Shown here one piece after another: positions 1 through 19,089 of a stretch of DNA of 64,000 nt. Source of the DNA: an uncultured delta proteobacterium. Its GTDB lineage: Bacteria; Myxococcota_A; Polyangia; Polyangiales; Houyiibacteriaceae. A model generated the notes under the pieces. That model had not been told where the DNA came from and did not search any database. It worked only from the letters and a program-made list of their open reading frames with translations. Where the stretch lies: the NCBI GenBank assembly GCA_963845195.1, contig CAWJRH010000004.1, forward strand, positions 1,638,104-1,702,103, in the 5' to 3' direction. A program made the translations under genes and the position numbers. How positions within the stretch are numbered: position 1 is the first letter of the stretch; every line of letters starts with the position of its first letter.

Positions 1-158
1 AGGACCACCGTCGAGGGATAGATCCCCTCCGACAGGTCGAAGAACTCGAACTGGACTTCGTTGAGCTCGAGGCCAACACGGTATTCGGGCGCCTCGCCGC
101 ACGCCCAGACGAGCATCAGCAAACCGATAGCAGCGCGCTTAGTAAGTGAATTGCACAT
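1..158 (-). CDS. putative lipoprotein, N-terminal part only (gene runs off the window start)
   Basis: The minus-strand ATG at 158 opens MCNSLTKRAAIGLLMLVWAC|GEAPEYRVGLELNEVQFEFFDL..., a signal peptide with a lipobox-like VWAC. The frame stays open to position 1. The start overlaps the last codons of the upstream GH-barrel gene. It is absent from the ORF track because it is under 60 aa in this window. Confidence 0.4.
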   Translation of the reverse strand, partial: MCNSLTKRAAIGLLMLVWACGEAPEYRVGLELNEVQFEFFDLSEGIYPSTVV

Positions 159-3100
159 AAGTTTTGATTTCCCATTCGCGACCTTTCCGGCCCGGGTCGG
201 CCGGATCGTATAAGTATCGATTGGAGAAGCGATTCAAGTTGCGGAACTGACCCGCCACCCCGAACCGCGTCGCCGCAGGCGCGTAGAGCGCGGGCGGCAT
301 ATAGGCATACGATAGATCGATGAGCACTTGTAGCGGATAGGTGAGGTTGAAGTCCTTGTGGTAGTCGTAGGGACCCCAGTCGTTGAACTTGAGGAAGTAG
401 TTCGCGGTGAACGAGCCGAGCGAGTACCAGCCATAGGTGCCGAATCGGGAGACGGTACGGGGGTTGTCGCCATTGGCCTGCCCCTGCCCCGCGTAGACCC
501 AGTTCACCAGGCGCATGTTGTAGGTGAAATTCACAATCGTGCGTGCGCTGAGGTCCCAGAGGTTTCGCGCAGGAGCCGACGACGGAAACGCGAAGAGGAA
601 GTCGGGGCCCACTCCGGTGTCGGGCACTCCGATTGCAACCGCCGCGTCCTGGGCCGTTGGAAGAATCCTGTACACGAAGTCGAGCGCGACCGACACGTCC
701 GCATCTTCGCGCTGGGCATTGTCCCAAGCGTACAGAGGCGTCTCAGGTGTGGGGTCCCAGCCGACGAGCAACTCGAAGCCGTAGGTCTCTCGATTGGAGC
801 GAACCCAGAACGGGTCAGAGAGCTGGTTCCGCGCTTGCACCCCGGGAAAGTAGAGGCCGGTGTTCGGGTCGAAGGCGTCTGGGATGAATGGGAGCGGACC
901 TTCGAGTGGCCGCTGCGCCAGGAAGTTTGGCGCAAGGATCACCTTGCCCAGGTAGTAGCCAATGCCGGATGAGACCGCCCAGTGATTGCCCTGGCCGCTC
1001 TCTTTGAGCGACCACCCGGTGATGGTCATCGTATTGTCGACGCCGCCGTCGCTGACGAGCCCGCGCATTCCTCCTTGCACGTACCAGAAGAACGGCGCCG
1101 CGTTATAGGTGAGCTTCACCTTGCCGCCGAGGGTATCGGCGAACCGAACCTTGCCGTCGAGGATGATGTATCCCGAGTCGAGATACGAAGGGCCGTCGGT
1201 CTGCCGGGCAGTCTCGTACGACTCGCCGATGAAGTTCGAGCGGCCCGAGATCACCCCAGCCTCGAGCTTGACTCGCTTCGCGGTGTAGCCGAAGAACAGC
1301 GTGCTCTTGCGGCTTCTCGGCTGGGGAATCACGGAGCTCGCGAACGTGTCCGGCAGTCGCTGGGCAAAGTCCTCTTGATGTATGACCGCGAACGCAAAGT
1401 CGCCGAACTCACGGTAATACTTGCCCAGAATCGTCGGGTTGGCGCCCCACCACAGCTCAGGGCCGAACGCAATGGTAAGGCCCTTGATCTTGTCCTTGCC
1501 CGTGAAGGTGAGCCCGATCGGCGCGTTGGCATTGTAGGTATCGATGTCGAACTGCTGATGGACCTCGGGATAGAGGCCAAAGAAGTCCCCCTCGTACCCC
1601 CAGTGGTAGTGTCCCGGACCTCGGAAGAAGCTTTCCAACAGGAAGTACTTGTTGTCCCAGTCAAAGGCTGCCTCGTAAATCTGGAAGCGCTCGCTCAGGG
1701 CTACGACGTTGCCTTCGACATCTTCGAAGCCAACCGGCTGTCCTCGGTCTTCGTAGAAGATCTCGTTGATCGGGTTGAGGGCGACGTTGCCAAGCCCGTT
1801 GATCACGACCTTGGCCCGAACCCCCTGCGTGGGCCGGACTTCCATCCCGAGGTAGATCGACTCGGTATCGCCGAACCGCGTGCTGTCTCGGTCGGGGTCG
1901 TTCAGCTGCCGGCCGCCCGTGGTGAAGGTCTCGAAGTCGACGCGCACGATCGGTGTAAACTTCTCGAGCTTGGCTAGCTTGCTCTGGGTATCCGCTGAGG
2001 AGCGTGGACCAATCCGCCCGAAGTGCTGTCGAATCACTTCGATGTCAGTGCCAGGCGCGTACGGGTCGAGTTCGAACGCATCCTGAAGGACGTAATAGGC
2101 TTCTCGCGGATAGACGCTGTAGATACCACGTGAGTTCGCACGCCCCTTGGACGTGATCCCGAACCACTCCTCGTTCATGTTGTTCTCGCCTTCGACATAG
2201 TCGAATCGATAGGCGTCGTTGCCCCATGACGCCGTATTGTCGTGCACGTCCAGGTTGACTTCCTGGTCGTACTTCCACCAGCCGTCGCTCCACTGGAAGA
2301 TCATGCCGCCGATGGCGTTCTGCACCCTGCCCTTCCCGTAGCTCTGCTCGTAGATCTCCTGCCAAAGAGACTGCAGGTAGAGTGCTTGTGCGACCGGGTC
2401 TTCGATGCCGCGCTTTGCGTCGTACGCATCGGAGCCAAACTCGGCGTACATGAGCGGCACCCCGAGCTCGCTCTCAACGCGCTCGAAGAGGTCTCGCGAC
2501 GAGGCGCCTCGATAGACGTTCGTGCCGAAGATATCGATGTTTGGACTCTCTTCTTTGATCACCTCGAGAAAGCCCAAATCCCCATTGACGATCGCCACGG
2601 GGTGGTTGGAGTCCATCGCGTGGATTTGCTCCGTGATCTCCCCGAAGAGTGAGTAGAGAAAGACCGCCCTCGCGTCGCCCTGTTCTGCTTCGGGCAAGTC
2701 TTCGATCTCGTTCGACTTCCAGTAGAGGCCGTAGTTGTTCTCATTGCCGAGCATCCACATCAGCAGGCCCGGCGTGTCTTTGTACTCCGCAACGAGTTCG
2801 GCAATTTCCTGCTTCACGAGCTCTCGGAAATGCTCATCGGAGTAATCCACGGGGCTCACCCAGACACCGTCGATCGTCATCCCGTAACGACCCACCGCAT
2901 GATTCAACGCGGTGTAGATCCCGTACTTCTCGTAGATGTAGTTGATCCATCTGGCCGGAACGCCAACGTACTGCCGAACGACATTGACCCCCATCTCTTG
3001 GAGGAGCCGCATGTCGCCTTCGAGCGCTTCAACGATGATTTCGTCGGGCTTATTCCAAAAGTTGTAGGTGTAGTTCTGCCCAATCGGCATGTATCCCCAG

Positions 3101-3498
3101 TTCATACCGAAGACCATTGTGGGCTTTCCGTCGACCAGCAGCTGATAGCCCCGCTCGTCCTTGTAGACCTCGACGGAGTTCGGGCCGTCGGTCTTGATCG
3201 GCGCGACCCTGGTGGACCCGGGCGGAGGTGCCGGCGGCCGCGTCGAGGCCGACCCGGACACACTCGGGTCGTCGGGGGCCACGGGGCTTGGCGCCTGCGT
3301 GGGCGGCGCGGGATCGATCGCCCGTGGCGCGTCAGTTCCGGGCTCTTCAGGAGGAAACTCAGACTCGCCGGGTGGAGGAATCGCATTGGGACCGGACGGA
3401 GCGCCCGAAGGCGTCGGCGCCCGCGTCTCTTCTCCGAACTGCTGTGCGGCCGCCGTTGCCGACCAGAATGTGAAGAGGATCACAAGAGCGACTCTCAT
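139..3498 (-). CDS. secreted clan GH-A TIM-barrel glycosidase (GH2-C/GH158-like, family unresolved) fused to a ~600-aa C-terminal predicted outer-membrane beta-barrel
   Basis: Part of ORF 139..3627(-). The internal ATG at 3498 gives the signal peptide MRVALVILFTFWSATAAAQQ, followed by a ~100-aa Pro-rich linker. Glycosidase motifs are LMWMLGNENNYG (candidate acid/base Glu) and PLMYAEFGSDAY (candidate nucleophile Glu). The C-terminal ~600 aa is rich in Gly/Tyr/Asn/Asp with alternating hydrophobicity and an OMP-style terminus KTYVQFTY. Confidence 0.8.
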   Translation of the reverse strand: MRVALVILFTFWSATAAAQQFGEETRAPTPSGAPSGPNAIPPPGESEFPPEEPGTDAPRAIDPAPPTQAPSPVAPDDPSVSGSASTRPPAPPPGSTRVAPIKTDGPNSVEVYKDERGYQLLVDGKPTMVFGMNWGYMPIGQNYTYNFWNKPDEIIVEALEGDMRLLQEMGVNVVRQYVGVPARWINYIYEKYGIYTALNHAVGRYGMTIDGVWVSPVDYSDEHFRELVKQEIAELVAEYKDTPGLLMWMLGNENNYGLYWKSNEIEDLPEAEQGDARAVFLYSLFGEITEQIHAMDSNHPVAIVNGDLGFLEVIKEESPNIDIFGTNVYRGASSRDLFERVESELGVPLMYAEFGSDAYDAKRGIEDPVAQALYLQSLWQEIYEQSYGKGRVQNAIGGMIFQWSDGWWKYDQEVNLDVHDNTASWGNDAYRFDYVEGENNMNEEWFGITSKGRANSRGIYSVYPREAYYVLQDAFELDPYAPGTDIEVIRQHFGRIGPRSSADTQSKLAKLEKFTPIVRVDFETFTTGGRQLNDPDRDSTRFGDTESIYLGMEVRPTQGVRAKVVINGLGNVALNPINEIFYEDRGQPVGFEDVEGNVVALSERFQIYEAAFDWDNKYFLLESFFRGPGHYHWGYEGDFFGLYPEVHQQFDIDTYNANAPIGLTFTGKDKIKGLTIAFGPELWWGANPTILGKYYREFGDFAFAVIHQEDFAQRLPDTFASSVIPQPRSRKSTLFFGYTAKRVKLEAGVISGRSNFIGESYETARQTDGPSYLDSGYIILDGKVRFADTLGGKVKLTYNAAPFFWYVQGGMRGLVSDGGVDNTMTITGWSLKESGQGNHWAVSSGIGYYLGKVILAPNFLAQRPLEGPLPFIPDAFDPNTGLYFPGVQARNQLSDPFWVRSNRETYGFELLVGWDPTPETPLYAWDNAQREDADVSVALDFVYRILPTAQDAAVAIGVPDTGVGPDFLFAFPSSAPARNLWDLSARTIVNFTYNMRLVNWVYAGQGQANGDNPRTVSRFGTYGWYSLGSFTANYFLKFNDWGPYDYHKDFNLTYPLQVLIDLSYAYMPPALYAPAATRFGVAGQFRNLNRFSNRYLYDPADPGRKGREWEIKTYVQFTY

Positions 3499-3600
3499 GC
3501 CGCATGCTCGCCCGTCAGCGTGGTGCGTCTCGCGATCCGACTGTGCATTGGTCCGGAATCTCCCGCTCAAACAGGCGGCGAAGCTGCCCGGTCGTCGAGT

Positions 3601-3619
3601 TTGTTCGAAGAGCGAACCA
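3601..3619. promoter_or_regulatory. candidate operator palindrome TTGTTC-N7-GAACCA in the divergent GH-barrel/ROK intergenic region
   Basis: The sequence ttgttcgaagagcgaacca was read directly. The same TTGTTC-N7-GAAC(A/C)A architecture recurs at 6864-6882. It resembles TTTGTT..AACAAA-type operators of ROK repressors such as XylR. Confidence 0.35.
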
Positions 3620-3733
3620 ACTATCAATTCATCTTCGAAATGTCAACAGCGTCCGCTATTTACCCGATGTTACTCAGTCTTCTCAAACCTCGGAGTCGCT
3701 TGACATTTTTGGGGCGCCAGAATAGTTGGTTCG
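3613..3733. repeat. perfect 12-nt inverted repeat pair CGAACCAACTAT (3613-3624) / ATAGTTGGTTCG (3722-3733)
   Basis: Read directly. Both copies lie in the relatively AT-rich 369-nt divergent promoter region. The right copy overlaps a TTGACA (3700-3705)-N15-AATAGT promoter-like element upstream of the ROK gene. Confidence 0.5.
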
Positions 3734-3867
3734 GACTGCGAACGAAGCAGAGCGAGCGGCATCCGAATGAAAGGCATCCATCAGACCCAAAGCTCCGCGG
3801 CTGCTCCTGCTTGCCTTGGACGAGCGGCGTCCGCCTACTGCAACGCGCCTCGCGCCCGAGGCCAGTG

Positions 3868-5106
3868 ATGTTGCGTTCGAGCCGCGCCACGGGTGAAGTC
3901 CTCGACGCGTCAGCAGTTCGAGCTCAGCACAGCCGACTAATTCTGAATCTGCTCTGGGCAGAACGTGAGATTTCACGGGCGGAATTGGCACGACGCACAA
4001 GCCTCAGCCGCTCGACGGTATCGGCGATCGTGAGCGATCTCCTGGACACGGGCCTCGTCGAAGAGGCACGCACGGGGGTCTCGAACGGCGGTCGGCGCCC
4101 GATCATGCTCGGCTTCCAAGACCAATCGAGCTTCATCGTGGGGATCGAGCTGGGCGCTACACACGTCTCATGCGTGCTCACAGACCTACGGTGCAACGTG
4201 AGAGCCTCCTGGTCTGCACCCGCCCCGGTTCGCGATAATCCTCAGGTCGCGTTGGAGAAGCTCACACTGGGAGTACGCGCCGTGCTGGCGGGGGATGAAA
4301 TCGAACCGTCGCAGCTCCTCGGCTTCGGTGTGGCTGTCCCAAGCCCCGTGGACGATGCGCACCCAGGCGAGCTATTGCCCCTCGTTCTCCCGAAATGGGT
4401 GGGCTACAACATCACCGAGCATCTCCGGAAGAGCTTCGAACGGCCCGTGTTCGTCGACAACGATGCGAACCTCGGCGCCTTGGCCGAGCTGTGGTGGGGC
4501 GCCGGCTCCGAAGGCAACGACCTCGCGTACATCAAGGTGGCAACCGGAATCGGTGCTGGCCTGATCATCAACGGCCGCATTTTTCGCGGGACTGGCGGCA
4601 TCGCGGGAGAGATCGGACACATGTCGATCGACCCGAACGGCGCCCAGTGCATTTGCGGGCTCAAAGGATGCCTCACGACCTTTATCGGTACGCCTGCCTT
4701 ACTGGAGCGCGCCGCACAAGCGTCGCGATCGAACGGCTCCGGGAGCCGCCCACCGCGAACCATCGACGAGTTGGTCGACTCGGCCTTGGCCGGCGACCCA
4801 GCATCCGTGGAGCTGATTCGCTACGCCAGCGAGAAGCTCGGGGTCGGCGTCGCCAATATGCTCAATCTTCTCAACCCGAAGACGGTAGTGCTCGGAGGTG
4901 GCATCGCGCGCGCGGGCGACCTCGTTCTCGAGACGGTCAACCGGACGATTCGCGGACTGTCTCTCCCCGCCTCGATCTCGAAGACCGAGATTCGGACCAC
5001 CGGCCTCAACGAGTGGGGCATCGCGGTTGGGGGTGCGACCCTGGTTCTGCAGAACGCGCTCGAAGCTCCGGCTCTCTTTCCCACTTTGGTGCGAGAAGTC
5101 GGTTGA
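3868..5106 (+). CDS. ROK-family transcriptional regulator (NagC/XylR-like)
   Basis: This is the 3' part of ORF 2830..5106, with the start taken at ATG 3868 (MLRSSRATGEV...). It has an N-terminal wHTH (ISRAELARRTSLSRSTVSAIVSDLLDTGLV), a ROK core (DNDANLGALAE) and a Cys-rich Zn motif (CICGLKGCL). The upstream part of the ORF is antisense to the GH gene. Confidence 0.85.
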   Translation: MLRSSRATGEVLDASAVRAQHSRLILNLLWAEREISRAELARRTSLSRSTVSAIVSDLLDTGLVEEARTGVSNGGRRPIMLGFQDQSSFIVGIELGATHVSCVLTDLRCNVRASWSAPAPVRDNPQVALEKLTLGVRAVLAGDEIEPSQLLGFGVAVPSPVDDAHPGELLPLVLPKWVGYNITEHLRKSFERPVFVDNDANLGALAELWWGAGSEGNDLAYIKVATGIGAGLIINGRIFRGTGGIAGEIGHMSIDPNGAQCICGLKGCLTTFIGTPALLERAAQASRSNGSGSRPPRTIDELVDSALAGDPASVELIRYASEKLGVGVANMLNLLNPKTVVLGGGIARAGDLVLETVNRTIRGLSLPASISKTEIRTTGLNEWGIAVGGATLVLQNALEAPALFPTLVREVG

Positions 5107-5152
5107 CCATCTCCCGCAGGGTAGCCGGCTTGCCGAACCTCGAGCGTGCGCG

Positions 5153-6643
5153 GTGAGCGGTTCTGGTTCGCAGCCGGCGCACTACGAAACGGCTCCAGAA
5201 GACCGAATCTCTTTTGCGCACAAGCTGATCTACGGCCTCGGCGGGCTCGTGAACAATCTCCTCGCCGCCGCGATCGGTGGCATGGTCATCGTATTGAACC
5301 TCGGGCTCGGCATGAGTCCTTGGCTCGTCGGCATGCTTGGCGCTCTGCCCCGGCTGACTGACGCCTTCACCGACCCGCTGATGGGCTACATCTCGGACCA
5401 CACGCGTTCGAGATGGGGCCGGAGACGCCCGTACATCTTCGTGGGTGCCATTGCCGCAGGCCTCATCTATGCCCTGCTTTGGCAGCTACCCGAAGGACGC
5501 AGCGAGAGCTTCTACTTCTGGTTCTTCCTCGCCGGATCGCTCGTCTTCTACTTGGCGTACACGGTGTTCGCGACGCCATGGGTCGCCCTCGGCTACGAGC
5601 TCACCCCCGACTATCACGAGCGCACCCGATTGATGGGCGTCCAGAACTTCTTCAGTCAGCTGGCCTACGTGATCTCCCCCTGGTTCTTGCTGGTGATGCA
5701 GTACGAGCCGTACTTCGACAACATGGTGACTGGCGCTGCGGGCCTGGCCATTGCGATCGGCTTGCTCACCGCGGTGGTGGGCGTCTTGCCCGCGATCTTT
5801 CTGAAAGAACCGTTCAACCCTGAAGCAATTGCCGAGCTCGACCAACACGACAGCGCCCTTGCCACCGGACCAGCCGACAAGATGTCCCTCGTGGACAGCA
5901 TGCGCGACTTCTTCAAAGGCTTCGCCGCGACGCTTCGCTTTCGGCCCTTCCTCAAGCTGTGCGCGGCAACCTTCCTGGTGTTCAACGGCTTCATGCTGAT
6001 CTCGTCGTTTCAGTTCTACGTGATCATCTACTACGTGTTCGGCGGCGATAAGGTCGCCGGGGCCGAGTACGTTGGCTACTCGGGTACCATCTCGGCCGTC
6101 GCTACGTTCTTCGTCATCGTGTTCATCACATGGCTCGCAACCAGGGTCGGCAAGCGACGCGCGTTCTTCGTGGCGACCGGTGTTTCGGTGATTGGCTACG
6201 GACTCAAGTGGTTTTGCTACGACCCTGAGACGCCCTGGCTGCTCCTCTTGCCTGCGCCGTTGATGGCGTTTGGCTTGGGAGGTCTGTTCACCTTGATGGG
6301 CTCGATGATCGCCGACGTGGTCGACCTCGATGAGCTCAAGACCAACGAGCGCCGAGAAGGCATGTTTGGGTCCATCTATTGGTGGGTCGTGAAGCTCGGG
6401 ATGGCCGCGGCGCTCGCCGGCGGCGGCATCCTTCTCGAAACGACCGGCTTCGACGTTGCACTCGAGGGAGCCCAGACCGACGCAACCCTCCTGTGGATGC
6501 GTCTGTTCGACATCCTGGTGCCGATGATCTCATCGCTCGCGGCCATCTGGATCGTCGCCTCCTACGGACTCACCGAGGCCAAGGCCCACGAGGTTCGGGA
6601 GGAACTCGAGCGCCGACGCGGCGCCGTCCAAGCGGCTCAGTGA
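5153..6643 (+). CDS. glycoside-pentoside-hexuronide (GPH/MelB-like) sugar:cation symporter, MFS superfamily
   Basis: The GPH signature is LTDAFTDPLMGYISDHTRSRWGRRRPY, with ~12 hydrophobic segments. GTG 5153 is the first plausible start after the ROK stop, so the start is uncertain. Confidence 0.85.
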   Translation: MSGSGSQPAHYETAPEDRISFAHKLIYGLGGLVNNLLAAAIGGMVIVLNLGLGMSPWLVGMLGALPRLTDAFTDPLMGYISDHTRSRWGRRRPYIFVGAIAAGLIYALLWQLPEGRSESFYFWFFLAGSLVFYLAYTVFATPWVALGYELTPDYHERTRLMGVQNFFSQLAYVISPWFLLVMQYEPYFDNMVTGAAGLAIAIGLLTAVVGVLPAIFLKEPFNPEAIAELDQHDSALATGPADKMSLVDSMRDFFKGFAATLRFRPFLKLCAATFLVFNGFMLISSFQFYVIIYYVFGGDKVAGAEYVGYSGTISAVATFFVIVFITWLATRVGKRRAFFVATGVSVIGYGLKWFCYDPETPWLLLLPAPLMAFGLGGLFTLMGSMIADVVDLDELKTNERREGMFGSIYWWVVKLGMAAALAGGGILLETTGFDVALEGAQTDATLLWMRLFDILVPMISSLAAIWIVASYGLTEAKAHEVREELERRRGAVQAAQ

Positions 6644-6863
6644 CCTCCGGCGAATCGCCCTAGCGCGGCAACAGATGAGCCCGGCCGGGCGTCCTGGTCA
6701 GCCAAAACCCCAAGAGTCTCGGGCCTGAACCCGCGTTTAGTCCCCGCCGCTCAGCGGGAGCCCGTAGCCCGTGGAGAATCAGGGGATTCGCGGAAATCTC
6801 GCCGCAATAAATTCTTCTTGATCTTTTCTCGGGACTTGGGCACTCAGTAGCCTCCCTGGACCT

Positions 6864-6882
6864 TTGTTCAAGACCCGAACAA
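6864..6882. promoter_or_regulatory. candidate operator palindrome TTGTTC-N7-GAACAA upstream of the CBM lipoprotein gene
   Basis: The sequence t-ttgttcaagacccgaacaa-a gives a perfect 7-nt inverted repeat (6863-6883), about 58 nt upstream of ATG 6941. It has the same architecture as 3601-3619. Confidence 0.35.
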
Positions 6883-6940
6883 ATCCCCCAGCCACTTCTG
6901 GCTTTGTGAATACGCAAGACGAACAGATGGAGATGTTTCG

Positions 6941-9274: not shown

Positions 9275-9297
9275 CCAATCGGGGTTCTCACAGTGAG

Positions 9298-9336
9298 GAC
9301 CCGGCCTGTGCACCCCTCCAGGATCCAGGCCGGGTC
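9298..9336 (+). terminator. putative terminator hairpin after the CBM lipoprotein gene
   Basis: GACCCGGCCTG-(17 nt)-CAGGCCGGGTC forms a perfect 11-bp stem starting 24 nt after the stop codon. There is no clear T-tract. Confidence 0.4.
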
Positions 9337-9504
9337 GACTCACTCATGACACGGCGTCAAGTGACGCATGCTGCAGCAGCAGTTCCATCAGGGACTCCAA
9401 CGAAGCAGCCTTACTGAGCGTAGACACGGTGGCGGGGGCAAACGAGCCCACCGCCATCGTGTTTGCCTGATCTTGGGGGAAGTGACTCGCATCTCTCGAA
9501 TTTC

Positions 9505-10653: not shown

Positions 10654-10655
10654 AG

Positions 10656-11711: not shown

Positions 11712-11732
11712 GCGCGAGCACTCTCGAATGAT

Positions 11733-12497
11733 TCATTCGACCAACACGACCGAGCCGAACAGGCCCGCGTCGATCCAGCCGCGGTCCTTCTTGTCCCCGG
11801 GCGCCGACTCAGAGCCAACGAAGTTCTCGCGGAGCTCGCTGCCGTCGTTGTCGCAGTAGGCAAGCATCAGGCCTATCACTTTGCCAGGCACCAGCTTGAC
11901 GGGTTCGTTCTTGTCGGAACCGTCGACGTAGTCGTCTGCGTAGATGTCGATTGCGACCTCCCAGACGATCTTGTTGCCGTACTGCCGCCAGCGGCTCTGA
12001 ACGTGATGCGAGTAGCTGTGGGGCGCCTTGTCGGTACCGATGTCGATGGCCTGGTTGTCGAGCGACACGTGATAGGCGAACGCGTTGTGGTTGTATTGGT
12101 GATCGCCGCCAGAGTAGTCCTCGTCGACGAAGACCTCGAGACAGTCGTCATCCCAGTACTGGACGAGCGGGTCACGGTGGCTGTCGAACAAGATGTCGTC
12201 GACGAACTCGCCGAGAATGTAGATGCGCTCCGAAGTCCAGACCACCTTGAAGCGGCCCTGAAAATCGGTCTTCGAGTACTCCGGGCCGAGCCAACGGTGC
12301 GTGAGCGCCTGCCAGCGAGCGCGCTTCCACACGGCCTCGTCCGCCACGCCATCGACCGTGGGCGCCTGCCGGGCGCGAGGCGCGCGATACTCGGTGCGCC
12401 CCGGGTAATGAGTGGAACCCTTCGCGAAAGCGAGAGGTGTGGCACACAGCCCAAGCGCCGCAAGCGCAACGCACAACATGGCGCCCACACGAAGCAT
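11733..12497 (-). CDS. secreted CBM9-like carbohydrate-binding protein
   Basis: It has a signal peptide ending LAFA|KG. The segment PTVDGVADEAVWKRARW...FKVVWTSERIYILGEFVDD...WDDDCLEVFVDEDYSGG matches the CBM9/DOMON-like pattern by eye. Confidence 0.6.
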   Translation of the reverse strand: MLRVGAMLCVALAALGLCATPLAFAKGSTHYPGRTEYRAPRARQAPTVDGVADEAVWKRARWQALTHRWLGPEYSKTDFQGRFKVVWTSERIYILGEFVDDILFDSHRDPLVQYWDDDCLEVFVDEDYSGGDHQYNHNAFAYHVSLDNQAIDIGTDKAPHSYSHHVQSRWRQYGNKIVWEVAIDIYADDYVDGSDKNEPVKLVPGKVIGLMLAYCDNDGSELRENFVGSESAPGDKKDRGWIDAGLFGSVVLVE

Positions 12498-12536
12498 GCC
12501 TCGACCTAGGTGCTCCGTCCGCTCCGCTCGACGGCG

Positions 12537-13511
12537 TCAGACAAACTTCGGCTCGCCTTCCTCGTTCCAGAGTCCCCAGTAGGCTCCGACATCACCCTCA
12601 TCGCTGGTCTTCCAGGTTTCGTCGAAGGCCGAGAAATAGAACACCTCAATGCCGTCGGCGTTGGCCCATTGATAGGTCCTGATGAAGTACTCGAGCGCAG
12701 CGTCGTAGGACGGCACGGCGGCACCGAAAGCGGACCCCGAAGTAGGCCAGCCCGTTTCACTGATGATGACTGGTTTTCCATCGGCTACGTTTTGCGCGCG
12801 TCGATACATCTCTTTCATATACAGCAGGGCATATTCCGCAGGACAGCTCTCCCAGAACGGATAACAGTTGACCAGCAGCGTGTCGCAGGCCGCAGACACG
12901 CGGGGGTGGTTCTCGAAGAGGAAGTAGGCATCGACGGTCCCCACGGGAACACCGGGGACCGAAGCCTTCGCGCGTTCGATGTACTGGATGAGCTGCGTTT
13001 CGGTGAGGTCTTCGCGAAGCATGACTTCGTTGCCGACCGCGAGAATGTCGGCGTGCCCCGCCCGGGCAACCTCGATGCCATTGCGTAGCTCGACTTCGTT
13101 CGCGTCCAAATCGCCCGACAGGCTGATTCCCACCATCGTCCGAAGCCCGAACTCACGCGCGATACGAGCCGTTTCCTGCTGTCCGTCGATGCATGAGAAA
13201 CTCCGGACCCACCGCGTGTACGGCGCGATGATGCTCATCCGTCCGCGTATCTGGTCGGCGCCGATATCACGCCCAGGAGCCTGTCCCGGCAAATACGGGC
13301 TGAAGGACATGCCATGGATCTTGTGACGCAGGATCGTCTGAAGGAGCGCCACCTTCTTCGCACGCGACATCTGTGAGAAATCGGTACCGAGAAGCCCCGG
13401 AAACCCCGGCAGCTTATAGCCGGAACGTCGGAACGCCACGGCAGCGCTCGACAGGGAGCTGACTGAGAACTCTTTGTGGTTGACTCCGGACACGATTCTC
13501 GCGTGGTGCAC
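12537..13511 (-). CDS. GH17-family beta-1,3-glucan hydrolase/transglycosylase without detectable signal peptide
   Basis: Motifs are ILAVGNEVML, the canonical VIISETGWPTSG, and FYFSAFDETWK...YWGLW. No hydrophobic N-terminal segment appears for any candidate start (M1 or the internal MSRAKK). Confidence 0.85.
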   Translation of the reverse strand: MHHARIVSGVNHKEFSVSSLSSAAVAFRRSGYKLPGFPGLLGTDFSQMSRAKKVALLQTILRHKIHGMSFSPYLPGQAPGRDIGADQIRGRMSIIAPYTRWVRSFSCIDGQQETARIAREFGLRTMVGISLSGDLDANEVELRNGIEVARAGHADILAVGNEVMLREDLTETQLIQYIERAKASVPGVPVGTVDAYFLFENHPRVSAACDTLLVNCYPFWESCPAEYALLYMKEMYRRAQNVADGKPVIISETGWPTSGSAFGAAVPSYDAALEYFIRTYQWANADGIEVFYFSAFDETWKTSDEGDVGAYWGLWNEEGEPKFV

Positions 13512-13541
13512 ACCACGCCCCAGCGCCGGACATTAGCACGC

Positions 13542-13561
13542 CGGTTCGCCTGATTGAACCG
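13542..13561. promoter_or_regulatory. inverted repeat CGGTTC-N8-GAACCG upstream of the cytoplasmic GH17 gene
   Basis: Read directly in the 65-nt gap between the GH16 stop (13577) and the GH17 start (13511). The half-site GGTTCG/CGAACC also occurs in the 3601-3733 region. Confidence 0.3.
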
Positions 13562-13576
13562 TGAAACTTCGCGCGT

Positions 13577-14986
13577 TCAGTCTGACGGGTCGACCCGCCT
13601 ATAGACCCTGACGTAGTCCACAAGCATCGTCTGGGGATAGGTCTCGGTGCCCGTGGGCGGTTGGTTGTTGCTGCCCAGTGTCCCGCCCATCGCGACGTTG
13701 AAGATCATGTAGAACTCTTCGAGGAACTCGCTCATCGTCTCTGGATTGATCGACTTGACAAAGTAAGTAATCCCGTCGATTTTGCCGACGATCTTGCTCT
13801 CGTCCCATTCGGCCCCGAAGAGGTGAAAGTCATCGCCAAGTGAGGTGTCGAAGGACTTGTTGGCGCTGACGAAGACCCGCCCTTCAGGAAACGAACAGGT
13901 CTCCGGAGCCTGGATCGACTCGTCGCACCAGTGGATCGTGAAATGCGTCGTTCTCTCGTTTGAGAACGCGTTGTGAAGCTCCATGAAGTCGATTTCGCCC
14001 GAGCGTGGCCACCCCACGGTCGGGAAGTTCGCTCCGAGTGCCCAGAACGCGGGCCACGCGGCCCTCCCAACGGGGGCCTTGATCCGGGCCTCTACTTTGC
14101 CGAACTTGAAATTGACCTTGTTGAGGGAATTGATCTTTCCTGATGTAATCGTTCCATCGCGGACACCGCAGGGCGGCGCAGGACACAACGCGGAGAGCAC
14201 CAGGTTGCCATCTTCGACGCGCACGTTGTCTGGCGACTCCGTATAGAGCTGCCACTCGTTGTTGCCCCATCCTTCGTTGCCGTATCCGGTCTCGATGGTC
14301 CAGTTGGTCGGATTCGGAGCCGTTCCCGAATCAAAGCCATCCTCGAAAACCAGCTCGTACTCGACATCGCTTGGCGGGCAGCCGTCTGACTGCGTGATCC
14401 CGTCGTAGTAGAATGTCCAGTCATCCGGATCGTTGCCCGCATCGCCGGTGACTCCCAGGTCAAAGATGACCGTGATTGCCGTAGCTTCGTCCCCGTCGGT
14501 GCCATCCGCGAAGTCGAAACATAGCTCTTCCCAGGCACCGCTCCCGCCATGCGCGGCCGGTCGCTCTTGCTCCAACCCCTCGAGCTTGAACAGTACGTCT
14601 GCGGGACGTGTGGACCAGACCTTCATCGTGAAGGCCGTGCCCGACCCCCAATCGACCGAATCGTCGAGCATGAGCGTGCTTCCGCCAAACACCTCGCCGG
14701 GGAATTTCTGCATTCTTGCAGCCTTGGGCGTCGCGTTGATTCCGCTCGGATCGGGATTGTCGACCACTCTCGACACGCCCCCGCCGAAATCAACGAAGGT
14801 GAACGGACCGCACGCGTCCTCGAACTCGACCGCGTCTGCGCAGTTCGCTGGTGGGGGTTCAGGGCGCTCAGGGCGCTCAGGCTCCTCGGTGGAGCCGACG
14901 CTTTCGTTGCTACAGCCGACCAAGCCGGCAATCAGCAAGAGAGAAACGCACACGCGCGGAAGCGGCGAGCGGTGTTTGGTGTACAT
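13577..14986 (-). CDS. GH16 endo-beta-1,3-glucanase (laminarinase) lipoprotein with an N-terminal CBM-like domain
   Basis: The lipobox is IAGLVGC|SNE. A ~170-aa beta-sandwich-like N-terminal domain precedes the GH16 catalytic ExDxxE in GEIDFMEL. The protein ends DYVRVYR. Confidence 0.9.
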   Translation of the reverse strand: MYTKHRSPLPRVCVSLLLIAGLVGCSNESVGSTEEPERPERPEPPPANCADAVEFEDACGPFTFVDFGGGVSRVVDNPDPSGINATPKAARMQKFPGEVFGGSTLMLDDSVDWGSGTAFTMKVWSTRPADVLFKLEGLEQERPAAHGGSGAWEELCFDFADGTDGDEATAITVIFDLGVTGDAGNDPDDWTFYYDGITQSDGCPPSDVEYELVFEDGFDSGTAPNPTNWTIETGYGNEGWGNNEWQLYTESPDNVRVEDGNLVLSALCPAPPCGVRDGTITSGKINSLNKVNFKFGKVEARIKAPVGRAAWPAFWALGANFPTVGWPRSGEIDFMELHNAFSNERTTHFTIHWCDESIQAPETCSFPEGRVFVSANKSFDTSLGDDFHLFGAEWDESKIVGKIDGITYFVKSINPETMSEFLEEFYMIFNVAMGGTLGSNNQPPTGTETYPQTMLVDYVRVYRRVDPSD

Positions 14987-15148
14987 GAAAAAACTCCAAG
15001 GAAACGTGCAGCCAAGAGCATAGTTCTATTGCCCGGTCGGGGTAGCCCCACGGCCACCCTTTTCCAAGCAAACTCAGGCTTTTTAGGCCAAATCCACAGT
15101 ACGAGAGATGGGCCGCGTCGTACAGGACGCCGTGCTAGGCAGTAGCCG

Positions 15149-16975
15149 ATGGGGCGCGTGAGGAAACATGACTGGGCCGCTACGTTGCGCGTGGTCGCGC
15201 GCGCGCTCGTACTCTCGTGCGCCTGCCTGGCCTTGTGGCCATCCGCCGGTGCGGCAGAGCCCATCCCCGTCGAGCTACGTCGCACAGAGGAAGGCTGGCA
15301 GCTACTGCGGGGCGGCAAGCCGTATTTCATTCGCGGCGCGGGCGGCGACGCTTCCCTCGAGCAACTTGCAGCCGCCGGCGCCAACTCTGTGCGCACCTGG
15401 GGATCGGACGACCTCGAAGCGAGTCTCGACGCGGCCCACGCGCTTGGCCTGTCGGTGACCGTTGGCATCTGGCTTGGCCACGAACGCCATGGGTTCGACT
15501 ACGGCGAAGAGGCCCAGGTGCGCGAGCAGCTCGAACGCGCCCGCAAGACGGTGCTCCGCTACAAAGACCATCCGGCGGTTCTTCTCTGGGGCATCGGCAA
15601 CGAGATGGAGGGCTTCGACTCGGGTGACAACCCAGCCATCTGGCGTGCAGTCAACGACATTGCCAGTATGGTCAAGAAGCTCGACCCGCACCATCCGACC
15701 ATGACCGTCACCGCCGAGCTTGGGGGCGGACGGATCGAAGGCGTTCACAAGCACTGCCCGGCGATCGACATTCACGGCATCAACTCCTACGGCGGTGCGA
15801 CCAGCGTCGCCGAACGCTACCGCGCCGCCGGAGCAACCAAGCCGTACATACTCACGGAGTTCGGGCCACCTGGCGTCTGGGAAACCCCGAAGACCGATTG
15901 GGGCGCACCCCTCGAGCCAACGAGTTCAGAGAAGGCGGCGTTCTACCGACGCAGCTATCAGCGTGGCATCCTCGACGCCCGGGGCCTTGCGCTCGGTTCG
16001 TACGTCTTTACCTGGGGCTCCAAGATGGAGGCAACCCCGACCTGGTACGGCATGTTTCTCGATGACGGCGCTCCACTTGGAGCAGTCGACGTCATGACCG
16101 AGCTCTGGTCGGGCACCCCCCCGAAAAACCTCGCGCCCACGATAGACCCCCTGGTGATAGACGCTCAACCAGAGCTCGACGCAGGCCAGGAGCTGCGCGT
16201 GCGGGCCGTGGTCACCGATCCAGAACGTTCGGCGCTCCGTGCGCGCTGGGTGCTGCGGCGCGAGCCCGGCGAATACTCGACCGGGGGCGACGCCCGGCCC
16301 GTGCCACCGGAGGTGACAGGCGCGATCCTCGAGGCGCGCACCGACGGAGCGCGCGTGCGCATGCCGAACGAGCCGGGCCCCTATCGGCTGTTCCTGACTG
16401 CCTACGACGCCGAAGGTAAAGCCGCCACGGCGAACGTGCCGCTCCGCGTGAAGGGCCAAGTGCGCACACCGATGCCTTTCTACGTGTACCAAAACGGTTT
16501 CGAGGGCATGCCCTGGACGCCCTCGGGCTGGATGGGTTCGACCGAATCGTTGACTCTCGATGGCAGCCATACCGTCAACCCGTACGATGGTGACGCCTGC
16601 ATCGAGGTTCGCTTCGAGGGCGACATCGGAACCTGGGTCAGCGTCGCCTGGCAGCACCCTCCCAACAACTGGGGAGATCAGGAAGGTGGCTACGACCTCA
16701 CGGGGGCGGGTTACCTCGAGTTCTGGGCTCGAGGCAAGTTCGGTCCGGAACAGATCAGCATCGGTGTCGGACTCCTTGGCGCCGACAAGGCACACCCCGA
16801 TTCAGCGAAGACTACGGTCGACGATATGCGGCTGACGCACGAGTGGAAGCGGTACCGCGTTCGTCTCAAGCGACTCGACCTCTCCAGCATCAAGACGGGC
16901 TTTGTCGTGACGCTCACCGGGCAAGGCTCGCCTGTGACGGTCTACCTCGACAGCATTCGCTTCGTCGCCAGGTGA
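15149..16975 (+). CDS. secreted clan GH-A TIM-barrel glycosidase (paralogous in layout to the 139..3498 catalytic domain) with a C-terminal CBM-like domain
   Basis: A signal peptide is present (...CLALWPSAGAAEP). Motifs are LLWGIGNEMEG and PYILTEFGPPG. The C-terminal ~170 aa, FYVYQNGFEG...VYLDSIRFV, looks like a jelly-roll CBM. Confidence 0.75.
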   Translation: MGRVRKHDWAATLRVVARALVLSCACLALWPSAGAAEPIPVELRRTEEGWQLLRGGKPYFIRGAGGDASLEQLAAAGANSVRTWGSDDLEASLDAAHALGLSVTVGIWLGHERHGFDYGEEAQVREQLERARKTVLRYKDHPAVLLWGIGNEMEGFDSGDNPAIWRAVNDIASMVKKLDPHHPTMTVTAELGGGRIEGVHKHCPAIDIHGINSYGGATSVAERYRAAGATKPYILTEFGPPGVWETPKTDWGAPLEPTSSEKAAFYRRSYQRGILDARGLALGSYVFTWGSKMEATPTWYGMFLDDGAPLGAVDVMTELWSGTPPKNLAPTIDPLVIDAQPELDAGQELRVRAVVTDPERSALRARWVLRREPGEYSTGGDARPVPPEVTGAILEARTDGARVRMPNEPGPYRLFLTAYDAEGKAATANVPLRVKGQVRTPMPFYVYQNGFEGMPWTPSGWMGSTESLTLDGSHTVNPYDGDACIEVRFEGDIGTWVSVAWQHPPNNWGDQEGGYDLTGAGYLEFWARGKFGPEQISIGVGLLGADKAHPDSAKTTVDDMRLTHEWKRYRVRLKRLDLSSIKTGFVVTLTGQGSPVTVYLDSIRFVAR

Positions 16976-17031
16976 CGGCCAGCAGAAAGACACATGGGAA
17001 CCCGTCCTTCGCCGGCCGAAGCCCTGCCGGG

Positions 17032-19089
17032 CTAGGGTGTTGGCGCCGAGGTAAGCACGAGGTTGTCGTAGAACACCCCGGACGGCTGGTTGTTCGTCGT
17101 CGTCGCCGAGAATCCAAACTGAAGAATTTGGCCTACGAGCGCTGGGACGATTGGGAGTGAGATGGAGTAGGTGTTCCAGTCTGTCGAAATGCTGGTCGTA
17201 TCGACCGTCACCAAGTTGGTTTGGTCGAAGGCGGGCGGGGCCAGCGTTTTGATGAACGCATACGCCTCGCTTGTGCCCGAGATGTCGCCACGTTTCGCCT
17301 GGAACTCGAACGTGAGCGTATTCCCCACATCGGTCCCTGCGATCGTGAATTCCTGGAACGTAAGCCCCTCGACGTTGTTGCCAGCGGTCTGATTGGCCTG
17401 GTTCTGGTAGTCGCTGATGATGACCAGCTGCTGAGCACCCTGCTCAGGACCACCTTCCCCCGCTGCGATGAGCGAGAAGGCAGCCTGCGGTGGGTTGTTT
17501 GGCGCAGGAAACGTTCCGTAGAAGGCGATGACCGTATCCGTCATGCCCTCGAACACGTTGCCGAACACCAGGAATCCGACATCACCCAACGCGGTCAGGC
17601 TCGCTTGGTTGAGCGATTCGAAGTTCTGCGAGTAGACGACCTCAGCATTCGGCTCACAGACCCCAGCGCTGCAGGTGCCCGTGCCGCCCTCGCACGAATC
17701 GGTGTTGTTCGAGGTTCCGCAGTTCCCTGCGTTGCACACCGCGTCCACACACTCGTTGCCTGTGTCAGGGCAGTCCGCGTTCACCGTGCATTCCGGGTCC
17801 GGTACGCAAAGGCCTCCGTCGCAGGTACCGTTCCCGCCGTCGCACACGTTCGTGTTGTTCGAGGTCCCGCAGGTCCCCGCGTTGCACACTGCGTCCACAC
17901 ACTCGTTGCCGGTGTCCGGACAGTCCGCGTTCACCGTGCATTCCGAGTCCGGTACGCAAACGCCTCCTTCGCAGGTGCCGTTCCCGCCGTCACACACGTT
18001 GGTGTTGTTCGAGGTTCCGCAGGTCCCCGCGTTGCACACCGCGTCCACACACTCGTTGCCCGTGTCCGGGCAGTCCGCCGCGGTGCTGCATTCCGCGTCG
18101 GAGACGCAGTTGCCCTGCCCATCGCAGGTTCCGTTGCCGCCGTCGCAGACGTTGGTGTTGTTGGAGGTCTCGCAGGTCCCCGCGTTGCACACCGCGTCCA
18201 CACACTCGTTGCCCGTGTCCGGGCAGTCCGCCGCGGTGCTGCATTCTGGCGGCGCTTCGATACACATCCCGTCAACGCAGGTCTCGCCCGCATCGCAGTC
18301 GTCATCGACCGTGCACTCGGGAGGGGCTCCCCCGACGCCTGCCATGCCGCCCGCGCCGCCGGTTCCGCCGGTTCCGCCGGTTCCGCCGGTTCCGCCGGTT
18401 CCGCCACCATCGACGCAGCGCACTGCGACTGTCCATCCGCTTACGCAGACGTCGAAGTCGTCATCAGACACCTTGATCGTCACTGACTGATCGCCCGCCG
18501 TTCCGCAGGTGTATGTGGTCGAGCTTGCGCCCGGGTCGGCAATCGTGCCGCCGGTCGCGCTCCACATGTACCGGCTCGCGTCGCCTTCCGCATCGACGGC
18601 GGTTGCCATGAGATCGATGTCGTTTCCGACCGAGGTCTGTAGTGGAGAGACGACCACTTTGGTCAGCTCGGCGCAGATGTTGAGCTTCCCGTTTACGCGA
18701 ACCGAACCGAACTGCGGAGGCCGAGTGCAGCGAAGCATCACGTGCACCTCGGTCGCAGCGCCGACCTCGACTCCGAACGGAGCCGATCCTCGGCAGACTG
18801 TGCCGTCCGCCGCCGCCGCAGCCATCTCGATTTCGTAGTCGTCGCAGGCCGGTAGCCCGAACACCTCGACCGAGGCTGTCGCCTCCGGAGCGCTGACATC
18901 GATGGTGCCGACCATGGACGGCATGTCGCAGCCGCTGATCTCCCAATCGACCTCCGCGATCTCGACTCCGTCGGCAAGGGTGAGGTTCAGCGCAAGCGAC
19001 CCTGTGTCCGGGTCGGCATCGGTCGAGCAAGCACCGACCCCCATGAGACTGGCTACACCGAAAACGAGAGCGAACGTGGAGCGGTTCAT
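17032..19089 (-). CDS. surface lipoprotein, paralog of 6941..9274: 4-Cys N-terminal module, (GGT)n linker, four Cys-rich repeats, C-terminal CBM-like domain
   Basis: The lipobox is MGVGAC|ST. There are four copies of EC(S/T)xxADCPDTGNECVDAVCNAGTCGTSNNTNVCDGGNGTC. The C-terminal AEVVYSQNFESL... is homologous to the C-terminus of 6941..9274. Confidence 0.8.
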   Translation of the reverse strand: MNRSTFALVFGVASLMGVGACSTDADPDTGSLALNLTLADGVEIAEVDWEISGCDMPSMVGTIDVSAPEATASVEVFGLPACDDYEIEMAAAAADGTVCRGSAPFGVEVGAATEVHVMLRCTRPPQFGSVRVNGKLNICAELTKVVVSPLQTSVGNDIDLMATAVDAEGDASRYMWSATGGTIADPGASSTTYTCGTAGDQSVTIKVSDDDFDVCVSGWTVAVRCVDGGGTGGTGGTGGTGGTGGAGGMAGVGGAPPECTVDDDCDAGETCVDGMCIEAPPECSTAADCPDTGNECVDAVCNAGTCETSNNTNVCDGGNGTCDGQGNCVSDAECSTAADCPDTGNECVDAVCNAGTCGTSNNTNVCDGGNGTCEGGVCVPDSECTVNADCPDTGNECVDAVCNAGTCGTSNNTNVCDGGNGTCDGGLCVPDPECTVNADCPDTGNECVDAVCNAGNCGTSNNTDSCEGGTGTCSAGVCEPNAEVVYSQNFESLNQASLTALGDVGFLVFGNVFEGMTDTVIAFYGTFPAPNNPPQAAFSLIAAGEGGPEQGAQQLVIISDYQNQANQTAGNNVEGLTFQEFTIAGTDVGNTLTFEFQAKRGDISGTSEAYAFIKTLAPPAFDQTNLVTVDTTSISTDWNTYSISLPIVPALVGQILQFGFSATTTNNQPSGVFYDNLVLTSAPTP
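17646..18250 (-). repeat. four tandem ~49-50-codon Cys-rich coding repeats plus a degenerate half repeat
   Basis: The repeats are visible in both the translation and the DNA. Segment 17865-17922 is the reverse complement of 8360-8417 with 57/58 identity by manual alignment. Confidence 0.85.
18361..18405 (-). repeat. perfect 9-bp tandem repeat (ggttccgcc) x5 encoding (GGT)5
   Basis: Read directly from ggttccgccggttccgccggttccgccggttccgccggttccgcc. It is in frame inside gene 17032..19089. Confidence 0.9.

Follow-up and report, generated by a model that had tools for sequence, protein, structure and literature searches.

A GH158-like domain fused to a predicted outer-membrane beta-barrel in a probable beta-1,3-glucan utilisation island of an uncultured Myxococcota bacterium

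The first 19,089 nucleotides of a 64-kb stretch of DNA (hereafter the window) from an uncultured delta proteobacterium of the Polyangiales (assembly GCA_963845195.1, contig CAWJRH010000004.1) hold an island of 11 complete genes and one cut gene that is very probably a locus for the utilisation of beta-1,3-glucan of the laminarin type. The leftmost complete gene, G1, encodes a glycoside hydrolase (GH) domain distantly related to family GH158 joined to a C-terminal beta-barrel of the outer-membrane class, and it overlaps the gene of a small partner lipoprotein. We propose that the two proteins form a TonB-independent channel for laminari-oligosaccharides with a built-in periplasmic glucanase, and we put the probability of this full mechanism at about 60%. 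An initial annotation of the same DNA had already described ten or eleven adjacent genes pointing to one substrate, with uptake through a glycosidase-barrel fusion plus a GPH symporter, and this is now the best-supported reading, given the outer-membrane fold of the barrel and the linkage of the fusion to the same genes in several phyla. Three features go beyond that annotation: a very large, unnamed fusion family that spans multiple phyla, a conserved lipoprotein partner and a conserved operator.

Results

Architecture of the fusion protein

The features at the left end of the island are as follows.

139..3498, minus strand: G1, fusion of a GH158-like TIM barrel and a beta-barrel, 1119 amino acids
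2002..3174, minus strand: G1 GH158-like clan GH-A TIM barrel, predicted acid/base in LGNENNYG and nucleophile in YAEFG
142..1959, minus strand: G1 predicted outer-membrane beta-barrel domain, 26 predicted strands, ends ...YVQFTY
1..158, minus strand: N-terminus of the partner lipoprotein, cut by the window edge

The G1 protein is 100% identical to a 1119-residue database sequence (P0001). Its full-length AlphaFold2 (AF2) model (pLDDT 80, pTM 0.70) shows, in order, a signal peptide (MRVALVILFTFWSATAAA, followed by QQ), a Pro-rich disordered stretch (about residues 20-105) and an (alpha/beta)8 barrel (110-500), after which come two short helices and about 26 long antiparallel strands reaching the C-terminus. 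Several comparisons point to the N-terminal domain being a distant GH158-like TIM barrel. The Pfam match is weak (GH2_C, 20.5 bits), while HMMER aligns the domain with the GH158(Pro) structure 9oro_A at E 1.6e-4 and BLASTP aligns it with G10, a GH158 enzyme of the same island, at 25% identity over 310 amino acids (E 1e-13). The latter alignment pairs LGNENNYG with IGNEMEGF and YAEFG with LTEFG. GH158 is also the top Foldseek match of the G1 model in the PDB (E 2e-12), and the two predicted catalytic glutamates, E254 and E354 (query numbering), do not vary among 41 homologues of 45-83% identity. The Ig-like (immunoglobulin-like) domain of GH158 enzymes, which in BuGH158 adds a loop to the active-site cleft (PMC7157763), has no counterpart in G1, where model residues 400-514 are short strands and helices leading into the barrel.

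The Pro-rich region (3187-3441, minus strand; G1 residues ~20-104) joins the signal peptide to the TIM barrel by about 85 disordered residues rich in Pro, Ala and Ser. Myxococcota G1 proteins have this stretch; it is absent from the Bacteroidota and Gemmatimonadota homologues, whose alignments begin at about residue 105, and it could be a tether that spans the periplasm. On one metagenomic contig (L086, 3-2127) the GH domain and the barrel are encoded by separate open reading frames (ORFs) with a 50-nt overlap, followed by a GH149 gene; the gene may truly be split here, or the arrangement may reflect a frameshift error.

The C-terminal domain belongs to the outer-membrane barrel class

Modelled in isolation (AF2, pLDDT 85.8, pTM 0.83), the C-terminal domain matches outer-membrane barrels in all of its top 50 PDB hits (E 4e-11 to 5e-9). 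With the full-length model, the Foldseek matches that come after GH158 are chitoporin, TonB-dependent transporter barrels, OprC, porins, ushers and AlgE. By its modelled fold the domain falls in the outer-membrane barrel class, without a close solved relative. The sequence carries the usual marks of an outer-membrane protein (OMP): a signal peptide, an even number of amphipathic strands with the alternating hydrophobic/polar (dyad) pattern, and an aromatic beta-signal at the C-terminus (...YVQFTY). The barrel domain has no Pfam match at E<=1, and G1 as a whole has no NCBIfam match.

Two known classes with outer-membrane barrels were considered and rejected for G1. It is not a TonB-dependent transporter, as it has no Plug or TonB_dep_Rec match at E<=1 and its N-terminal domain is a TIM barrel; the Bacteroidota homologues begin directly at this TIM barrel. 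Nor is it a type Va autotransporter, given about 26 predicted strands rather than 12 and a linker helix of about 12 residues.

Within the barrel, the residues that face the lumen are more conserved than those that face the lipid (0.67 vs 0.56, p 2e-4), and the long loops across the barrel from the N-terminus stand out by their conservation and their many aromatic residues (for example RGPGHYHWGYEGDFFGLYPE...). This pattern of conservation fits a substrate-specific constriction better than a passive anchor. In the model, tight turns of 2-3 residues lie on the N-terminal side of the barrel, from which, under canonical OMP topology, we infer a periplasmic position for the GH domain.

A HMMER scan of 1.84 billion representative sequences with the barrel domain (E<=1e-3) returned 372 clusters, mostly fusions of 1000-1100 amino acids with the barrel at the C-terminus. 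A few stand-alone barrels were found (e.g. P0193), with their own signal peptide, a C-terminal Phe and no Pfam family. P0193 is the only clean stand-alone barrel with a partner lipoprotein; P0243 lies in a non-carbohydrate context, and P0170 was rejected as a split or frameshifted fusion.

A large multi-phylum family linked to beta-glucan genes

More than 4,586 sequences are homologous to G1 at E<=1e-3, and the top 120 are nearly all full length. Those that are named are called "hypothetical", "GH2 TIM-barrel domain protein" or "beta-galactosidase". We located 594 G1 loci in species-representative genomes and kept 80 of them for comparison (81 loci entered the GH149 count and the operator search), with G1 homologues of 43-80% identity over about 1,010 residues. 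These 80 loci come from Myxococcota, Gemmatimonadota, Bacteroidota, Rhodothermales/Balneolales, Ignavibacteria, Krumholzibacteriota, Latescibacterota, Eisenbacteria and Delongbacteria. The Bacteroidota carriers include Flavobacterium, Chryseobacterium, Cloacibacterium, Algoriphagus, Bacteroides cellulolyticus, Saprospiraceae and Chitinophagaceae, and cultured carriers are Myxococcus sp. Y35, Algoriphagus, Chryseobacterium aquaticum, Flavobacterium terrisoli, Cloacibacterium rupense and Bacteroides cellulolyticus.

Neighbours were counted by tblastn with the window proteins within 10 kb of each G1 homologue, both in all loci and in the 43 long loci (at least 20 kb, from at least eight phyla).

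GH16: 58/80 loci, 41/43 long loci
GPH symporter: 36/80 loci, 25/43 long loci
GH17: 32/80 loci, 23/43 long loci
ROK regulator: 25/80 loci, 19/43 long loci
GH149: 37/81 loci, 24/43 long loci

In Chryseobacterium, Flavobacterium and Algoriphagus the gene order is a Y_Y_Y/LuxR regulator of the BguR type, the G1 homologue, a lipoprotein and a GH16 lipoprotein, then GH149, GH17 and GH30 or GH3. The lipoprotein that follows the G1 homologue in Bacteroidota has 450-1300 amino acids and matches CBM11, CBM30 or Big_2. In the laminarin polysaccharide utilisation locus (PUL) of Formosa agariphila, BguR is directly upstream of SusC/SusD (preprint 10.64898/2026.01.10.698779). Since BguR stands upstream of either pair, the G1 homologue and its lipoprotein appear, by analogy of position, to fill the SusC and SusD slot in Bacteroidota. 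In 28 Bacteroidota loci, inspection of the large ORFs revealed none that was SusC-like.

We found no description of the GH-barrel fusion in the open-access literature, which is not proof of novelty. A benthic metagenome study lists "GH2" among laminarin-associated carbohydrate-active enzymes (PMC10811738), and these entries might be G1-type proteins. What is new here is the outer-membrane component, for which neither Pfam nor NCBIfam has a model; both the set of enzymes and the pathway were already known.

The lipoprotein partner and what may lie beyond the left edge

The ATG of the partner lipoprotein gene overlaps the G1 stop codon by 20 nt, and the same overlap (-19 nt) with a homologous lipoprotein of about 200 amino acids is found in other Myxococcota loci. 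The 158 nt of this minus-strand gene that lie inside the window encode MCNSLTKRAAIGLLMLVWAC, followed by GEAPEYRVG.... As a stand-in for the region left of the window we used locus L081, whose G1 homologue is 80% identical. Its order is GH1, G1, three lipoproteins of 202, 232 and 289 amino acids, and GH149. The partner N-terminus shares 41.5% identity over 53 amino acids with the 202-residue lipoprotein, which is directly downstream of the fusion gene. The L081 GH149 product is a beta-1,3-oligosaccharide phosphorylase (E = 0 to 6hq6). Neither GH149 nor GH1 is in the window; by analogy with L081, both genes are probably located just to its left.

The stand-alone barrel P0193 is likewise followed by a lipoprotein, which has the common motif YYLWA...TGENQFY. 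Because this barrel and a homologous lipoprotein occur together without an enzyme domain, the barrel-lipoprotein pair looks like the conserved core, to which the GH domain would be an addition.

The island encodes a laminarin-type enzyme set

The remaining genes were mapped from long ORFs with high third-position GC; the GC content is 60-67% across the window.

3868..5106, plus strand: ROK regulator, winged helix-turn-helix (HTH) and ROK domain
~5153..6643, plus strand: GPH/MFS_2 symporter
6941..9274, plus strand: G4, Cys-repeat lipoprotein, 777 amino acids
9505..10653, plus strand: G5, GH16 laminarinase lipoprotein
10656..11711, plus strand: G6, GH17-like lipoprotein
11733..12497, minus strand: G7, secreted protein with a CBM9_1 domain
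12537..13511, minus strand: G8, GH17, start codon uncertain
13577..14986, minus strand: G9, GH16 lipoprotein
15149..16975, plus strand: G10, GH158 beta-1,3-glucanase
17032..19089, minus strand: G11, Cys-repeat lipoprotein, 685 amino acids

Twenty-six long ORFs of the window were compared with Pfam, and the first ten of them with NCBIfam as well. None of these ORFs matched TonB_dep_Rec, Plug, CarboxypepD_reg or SusD, so that the adjacent SusC/SusD pair by which a PUL is strictly defined is absent from them. The island nonetheless has what a PUL has in the wider sense, clustered lipoprotein GHs and glycan-binding proteins for one glycan (two GH16, two GH17, GH158, CBM9_1), and the description as PUL-like without SusC/SusD holds for this window. 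At least six lipoboxes had been claimed and six were read: LAGC in G4, LVGC in G5, VAGC in G6, LVGC in G9, VGAC in G11 and VWAC in the cut gene, the last being the "WAC" of the initial annotation.

Both GH16 enzymes are recognised by Pfam, G5 at E 1e-23 with the motif EIDIME and G9 at E 5e-10 with EIDFME, in agreement with the two ExDxxE laminarinases proposed before. The best solved relatives of G5 are laminarinases (4dfs, 3azx and 2vy0, E down to 8e-58). In G9, an N-terminal module of about 160 amino acids has no family assignment.

The two GH17 genes are likewise borne out, with VGNE in both and the second motif, given earlier as E(T/A)GW(P/A)(T/S), read as ETGWPT in G8 and EAGWAT in G6. 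G8 scores well above the Pfam cut-off (46.6 vs 28.2 bits), and it matches the beta-1,3-glucanosyltransferase 4wtp (E 1e-26) and also a Formosa GH17; G6 has both motifs and stays below the same cut-off at 25.1 bits. G8 is probably cytoplasmic, judging from its lack of a signal peptide, and its homologues in loci L019 and L075, of about 300 amino acids, also have none. A cytoplasmic GH17 is found in Alteromonadales clusters too (PMC5827456). In related loci a G6-like and a G8-like GH17 form a conserved adjacent pair.

G10 is unambiguously assigned by sequence to GH158, an endo- or processive-type beta-1,3-glucanase. It matches GH158(Pro) 9oro_A at E 1.3e-104 over 406 residues (29-434) and BuGH158 (6pal) at E 1.7e-58; it has the TIM barrel and the Ig-like domain, and its catalytic motifs IGNE and TEFG align with those of GH158 enzymes. 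BuGH158 acts strictly as an endo-laminarinase, its catalytic residues being N136/E137 and E220 (PMC7157763), and processive beta-1,3-glucan hydrolysis has recently been described for GH158(Pro) (PMC13195107). G10 carries an additional C-terminal module of about 170 amino acids with a weak CBM30 match (E 0.002). G10 and the distant GH158-like domain of G1 are the two clan GH-A TIM barrels that had been noticed before.

The CBM9-like protein is G7 (Pfam CBM9_1, E 1.5e-37). A homologue was found in only one of the 80 related loci (L001), so G7 appears to be a lineage-specific accessory gene. The symporter matches MFS_2 (E 8e-58), which places it in the GPH family, while its TIGR00792 score of 175 bits is under the curated cut-off of 231; homologues of 38-71% identity occur in 36 of the 80 related loci. 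From its family it is predicted to sit in the inner membrane. Beta-1,3-glucan (laminarin or the glucan of fungal walls) as the substrate, proposed before, is supported by GH16, GH17 and GH158 here and by GH149 and GH1 in the relative L081.

For G4 and G11, the Cys repeats of the initial annotation were found and its carbohydrate-binding module (CBM) label was not, as Pfam gives weak Big_9/PKD matches at most; calling them CBM proteins would be a guess. G4 consists of an N-terminal Ig-like module, Cys-rich repeats and a conserved C-terminal domain of about 190 amino acids, and it is a candidate surface glycan-binding protein. Neither the C-terminal domain of G4 and G11 nor the middle domain of G4 has a sequence-similar solved protein. 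The C-terminal domain (G4, 8690-9274; G11, 17035-17607) has no Pfam match and is found again in Krumholzibacteriota and other phyla, in lipoproteins encoded at a distance of about 2 kb from G1 homologues (loci L024, L028, L041, L043, L053, L054 and L012; L081, 14656-15525). That of G11 is 55% identical to the 289-residue lipoprotein of L081, which the G4 domain also matches. The domain is a candidate new beta-glucan-binding module.

G11 also has a Gly-Gly-Thr run (9-bp GGT-type repeat at 18356-18405) and 3.5 copies of a 50-residue Cys-rich repeat, encoded by a 150-bp tandem repeat with 88% match (17701-18231; unit ...ADCPDTGNECVDAVCNAGTCGTSNNTNVCDGG...). Nearly identical 50-residue units are present in G4 (about 8300-8700), which suggests a recent duplication or gene conversion between the two genes. 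G4, G5 and, more distantly, G11 have in common a Cys-containing Ig/PKD-like module of about 100 amino acids right after the lipobox (FNVNDEQDPPIWSTIMDLPPGDCSITLTA in G4, 6990-7300; FNVNDDLDPPVWSALMDLPVGDCSITLTA in G5, 9590-9900; 18700-19000 in G11), probably a common stalk of surface lipoproteins.

A ROK protein and a conserved candidate operator palindrome

The ROK regulator has the winged HTH, the ROK domain and the Cys-rich zinc motif of ROK-family repressors (Pfam ROK E 1.8e-54, HTH_24 E 2.7e-9; CxCGxxGC present as CICGLKGC), and with the symporter it completes the gene set described earlier. Scores of 197 and 166 bits against the NagC and Mlc equivalogs (cut-offs 650 and 530) make it NagC/Mlc-like and not an equivalog. 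Three candidate operators were found.

3600..3620: candidate operator 1, TTTGTTCGAAGAGCGAACCAA, divergent G1/ROK promoter region
3726..3746: candidate operator 2, TTGGTTCGGACTGCGAACGAA, same G1/ROK intergenic region
6863..6883: candidate operator 3, TTTGTTCAAGACCCGAACAAA, 58 nt upstream of G4

The palindrome GTTC-N7-GAAC has three sites in the 64 kb, all in island promoters, and all three extend to TT(T/G)GTTC-N7-GAAC(A/C/G)AA. The count of 3 in the window vs 1.4 expected is not significant alone, and the weight lies on the placement of the sites and on their conservation elsewhere. When at most one mismatch is allowed, the 81 loci (1.48 Mb) contain 53 copies of TTGTTC-N7-GAACAA vs about 3 expected; most of them precede the G1 homologue by 150-600 nt or stand where its operon begins. 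These sites were detected in Myxococcota, Gemmatimonadota, Ignavibacteria, Rhodothermales and Delongbacteria; within the same 81 loci, none was found in the BguR-bearing Bacteroidota loci. This phylogenetic footprint argues for a conserved regulon centred on G1, and its co-occurrence with the ROK gene makes the ROK protein the probable operator binder.

Proposed mechanism and alternatives

The proposed pathway would begin outside the cell, where G5, G9 (GH16) and G10 (GH158) would cut the polymer and the putative binding proteins G4, G11 and G7 would capture it. The 26-strand barrel of G1 would then let the fragments through the outer membrane; its conserved, aromatic-rich loops may form a sugar-specific constriction, and the small partner lipoprotein may cap or plug it as a gate. 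At the periplasmic mouth the GH158-like domain would cleave the incoming chain, making entry effectively one-way with no need for TonB energy. G6, the GH17 lipoprotein, would trim the products, the GPH symporter would take di- and trisaccharides into the cytoplasm, and the signal-less GH17 G8 would finish the degradation there. GH149 phosphorylase and GH1 would also act, in relatives and probably from genes just left of the window. The ROK protein would repress at least three of the six transcription units through TTGTTC-N7-GAACAA. An enzyme-transporter fusion has a precedent in laminarin use, the GH17-MFS protein of Formosa (PMC6246565).

Several observations weigh against this proposal. The TM-scores of the C-terminal domain to solved barrels are low (0.3-0.39, with 6-11% identity), so the count of 26 strands comes from the AF2 model only. 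The GH domain lacks the Ig-like domain, and its activity and specificity are predictions. The order of an N-terminal passenger and a C-terminal barrel is also that of autotransporters, and a TonB-dependent transporter could be encoded elsewhere in the genome. Finally, no operator was found upstream of G9-G7, G10 or G11, and co-regulation of the whole island is therefore not established.

The domain order is the starting point of a different explanation, in which the barrel merely anchors or exports the glucanase domain to the cell surface and oligosaccharides enter elsewhere. An N-terminal enzyme, a short helix (residues 503-514) and a C-terminal barrel follow the type Va plan, and the Bacteroides GH158 enzymes are surface lipoproteins (PMC7157763). 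We nevertheless hold surface display to be unlikely. The barrel has about 26 strands and not 12, the helix before strand 1, at about 12 residues, is too short for the membrane, and the strong conservation of the lumen face and long loops across phyla would be unneeded in a mere anchor. Moreover, three endo-glucanases of the island, CBM- or lipid-anchored, are already available for the surface step, the large ORFs of the 43 long loci include no other outer-membrane transporter, and the barrel-lipoprotein pair is also found without the enzyme domain. Import might instead be the task of an unlinked TonB-dependent transporter or general porin, with G1 a tethered periplasmic glucanase whose barrel has no transport role. 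Our view is limited to 64 kb of the genome, and Alteromonadales clusters with GH16, GH17, MFS and GH149 do use a TonB-dependent receptor (PMC5827456). This appears quite improbable to us, as a barrel of about 600 residues kept at about 45% identity across phyla would be an expensive tether, G1 and the lipoprotein take the places of SusC and SusD in Bacteroidota loci, and the linkage to GH16 holds in 41 of the 43 long loci.

Secretion systems for exopolysaccharides often combine a porin with a glycoside hydrolase, and AlgE and usher barrels are among the fold matches of G1, which could then be the porin of a beta-glucan export system with a trimming hydrolase, comparable to BcsC/BcsZ, PelB/PelA or PgaA/PgaB. 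We rejected this role as highly improbable, as no glycosyltransferase, co-polymerase or tetratricopeptide-repeat scaffold occurs in the island or the related loci, and the neighbours are catabolic (GH16, GH17, GH3, GH30, GH1, the GH149 phosphorylase and a GPH-family importer). Returning to the channel with a built-in glucanase, a wider and more speculative form of it is that the fusion and its lipoprotein are a third, TonB-independent class of glycan importer beside SusC/SusD and the sugar porins. Cleavage by the GH158-like domain, whose relatives in GH158 include an enzyme with recently described processive action (PMC13195107), would rectify diffusion and pull in the chain as a hydrolysis-driven ratchet. 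For laminarin, the class would stand in for SusC/SusD across at least eight phyla, part of the Bacteroidota among them, and the enzyme-less core would serve other substrates. We offer this extension tentatively and regard it as doubtful.

Comparison with known systems

The laminarin PULs of Bacteroidota (Bacteroides uniformis 1,3GUL; Formosa, Gramella, Christiangramia) resemble the island in their enzyme families, GH16_3, GH17, GH158, GH149, GH30 and GH3 (PMC7157763, PMC6246565, preprint 10.64898/2026.01.10.698779); GH16, GH17 and GH158 are common to both, and GH149 is found in relatives of the island. They are also alike in having lipoprotein endo-glucanases, glycan-binding lipoproteins, an MFS/GPH inner-membrane transporter and the same pathway logic. 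In contrast to them, the island has no SusC-like transporter or SusD and has the fusion and its lipoprotein instead, and its regulator is a ROK protein rather than a hybrid two-component system or BguR. The type II GH149 clusters of Alteromonadales have a similar gene set of extracellular GH16, cytoplasmic GH17, MFS_2 and GH149 (PMC5827456), but they use a TonB-dependent receptor and a histidine-kinase/response-regulator pair where the island has the GH158-like barrel fusion and ROK. In Formosa, the GH17-MFS protein is a laminarin GH fused to a transporter of the same pathway, with proposed coupling of hydrolysis and uptake, as in G1 (PMC6246565); it is an inner-membrane MFS with GH17, whereas G1 is predicted to be an outer-membrane beta-barrel with a GH158-like domain.

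Outside laminarin use, chitoporin ChiP with chitodextrinase (Vibrio/E. coli) and LamB with periplasmic amylase are TonB-independent, substrate-specific oligosaccharide channels, as proposed for G1, and chitoporin is among the best fold matches of G1. Their barrels, however, have 16-18 strands and are unrelated to G1 in sequence, the enzyme is not fused, and there is no dedicated lipoprotein partner. In LptD/LptE, a periplasmic domain at the N-terminus precedes a 26-strand barrel at the C-terminus, and the partner is a lipoprotein of about 200 amino acids, an architecture like that of G1 and its partner in predicted strand count and partner size. LptD exports lipopolysaccharide, shows no sequence or close fold similarity to G1 and is not in the top 50 fold matches. 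GluM of Corallococcus sp. EGB is a homologue of M. xanthus Oar, a TonB-dependent-type protein. GluM is a myxobacterial outer-membrane beta-barrel beta-1,6-glucanase tied to fungal predation (cited in PMC10800785). The G1 barrel matches no TonB-receptor model.

Limits of the island and the rest of the window

Of the limits 1-19089 given by the initial annotation, the right one stood and the left one did not: a gene is cut at position 1, and the island almost certainly extends further left. The right limit is reasonable, because G12 (19205-20662) has no homologue in the 80 related loci, for which it was rejected as a member, and the family-matched genes beyond are housekeeping genes. These are OmpA, YkuD, ComEC, fumarase, argininosuccinate lyase and LysA, with further matches to GatB, an amidase, two-component sensors, a FadB-like protein and radical SAM.

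G12 (minus strand) encodes a 485-residue secreted Met-/Ala-rich protein with no Pfam family, between the island and the OmpA-family gene. The segment 37497-45293 is a signalling cluster that encodes a response-regulator diguanylate cyclase, a hybrid histidine kinase and a GAF histidine kinase, with amidotransferase genes of the GatA/GatB type in between; it is apparently unrelated to the island. A 317-residue Cys-rich protein (46863-47816, plus strand) has weak matches to DUF7107 and the Dickkopf N-terminal cysteine-rich region, unusual in a bacterium, and a 1015-residue protein (59204-62251, plus strand) is a fusion of Radical_SAM_N2, B12-binding, Radical_SAM and DUF2344.

Implications

In the marine carbon cycle, laminarin ranks among the largest fluxes, and the walls of fungi and oomycetes have beta-1,3-glucan as their core. 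Models of glycan uptake in Gram-negative bacteria rest on SusC/SusD or other TonB-dependent transporters, and tools for PUL prediction need the SusC/SusD pair, which makes them blind to a component of the G1 type. The family is annotated merely as "GH2 TIM-barrel protein", "beta-galactosidase" or "hypothetical", and its barrel has no Pfam model. As a consequence, laminarin-degrading capacity may be missed or mis-assigned in Myxococcota, Gemmatimonadota, Ignavibacteria, Krumholzibacteriota and some Bacteroidota. If the proposed mechanism is true, the family would provide energy-independent import of a polymer coupled to its hydrolysis, which is testable as carriers are cultured.

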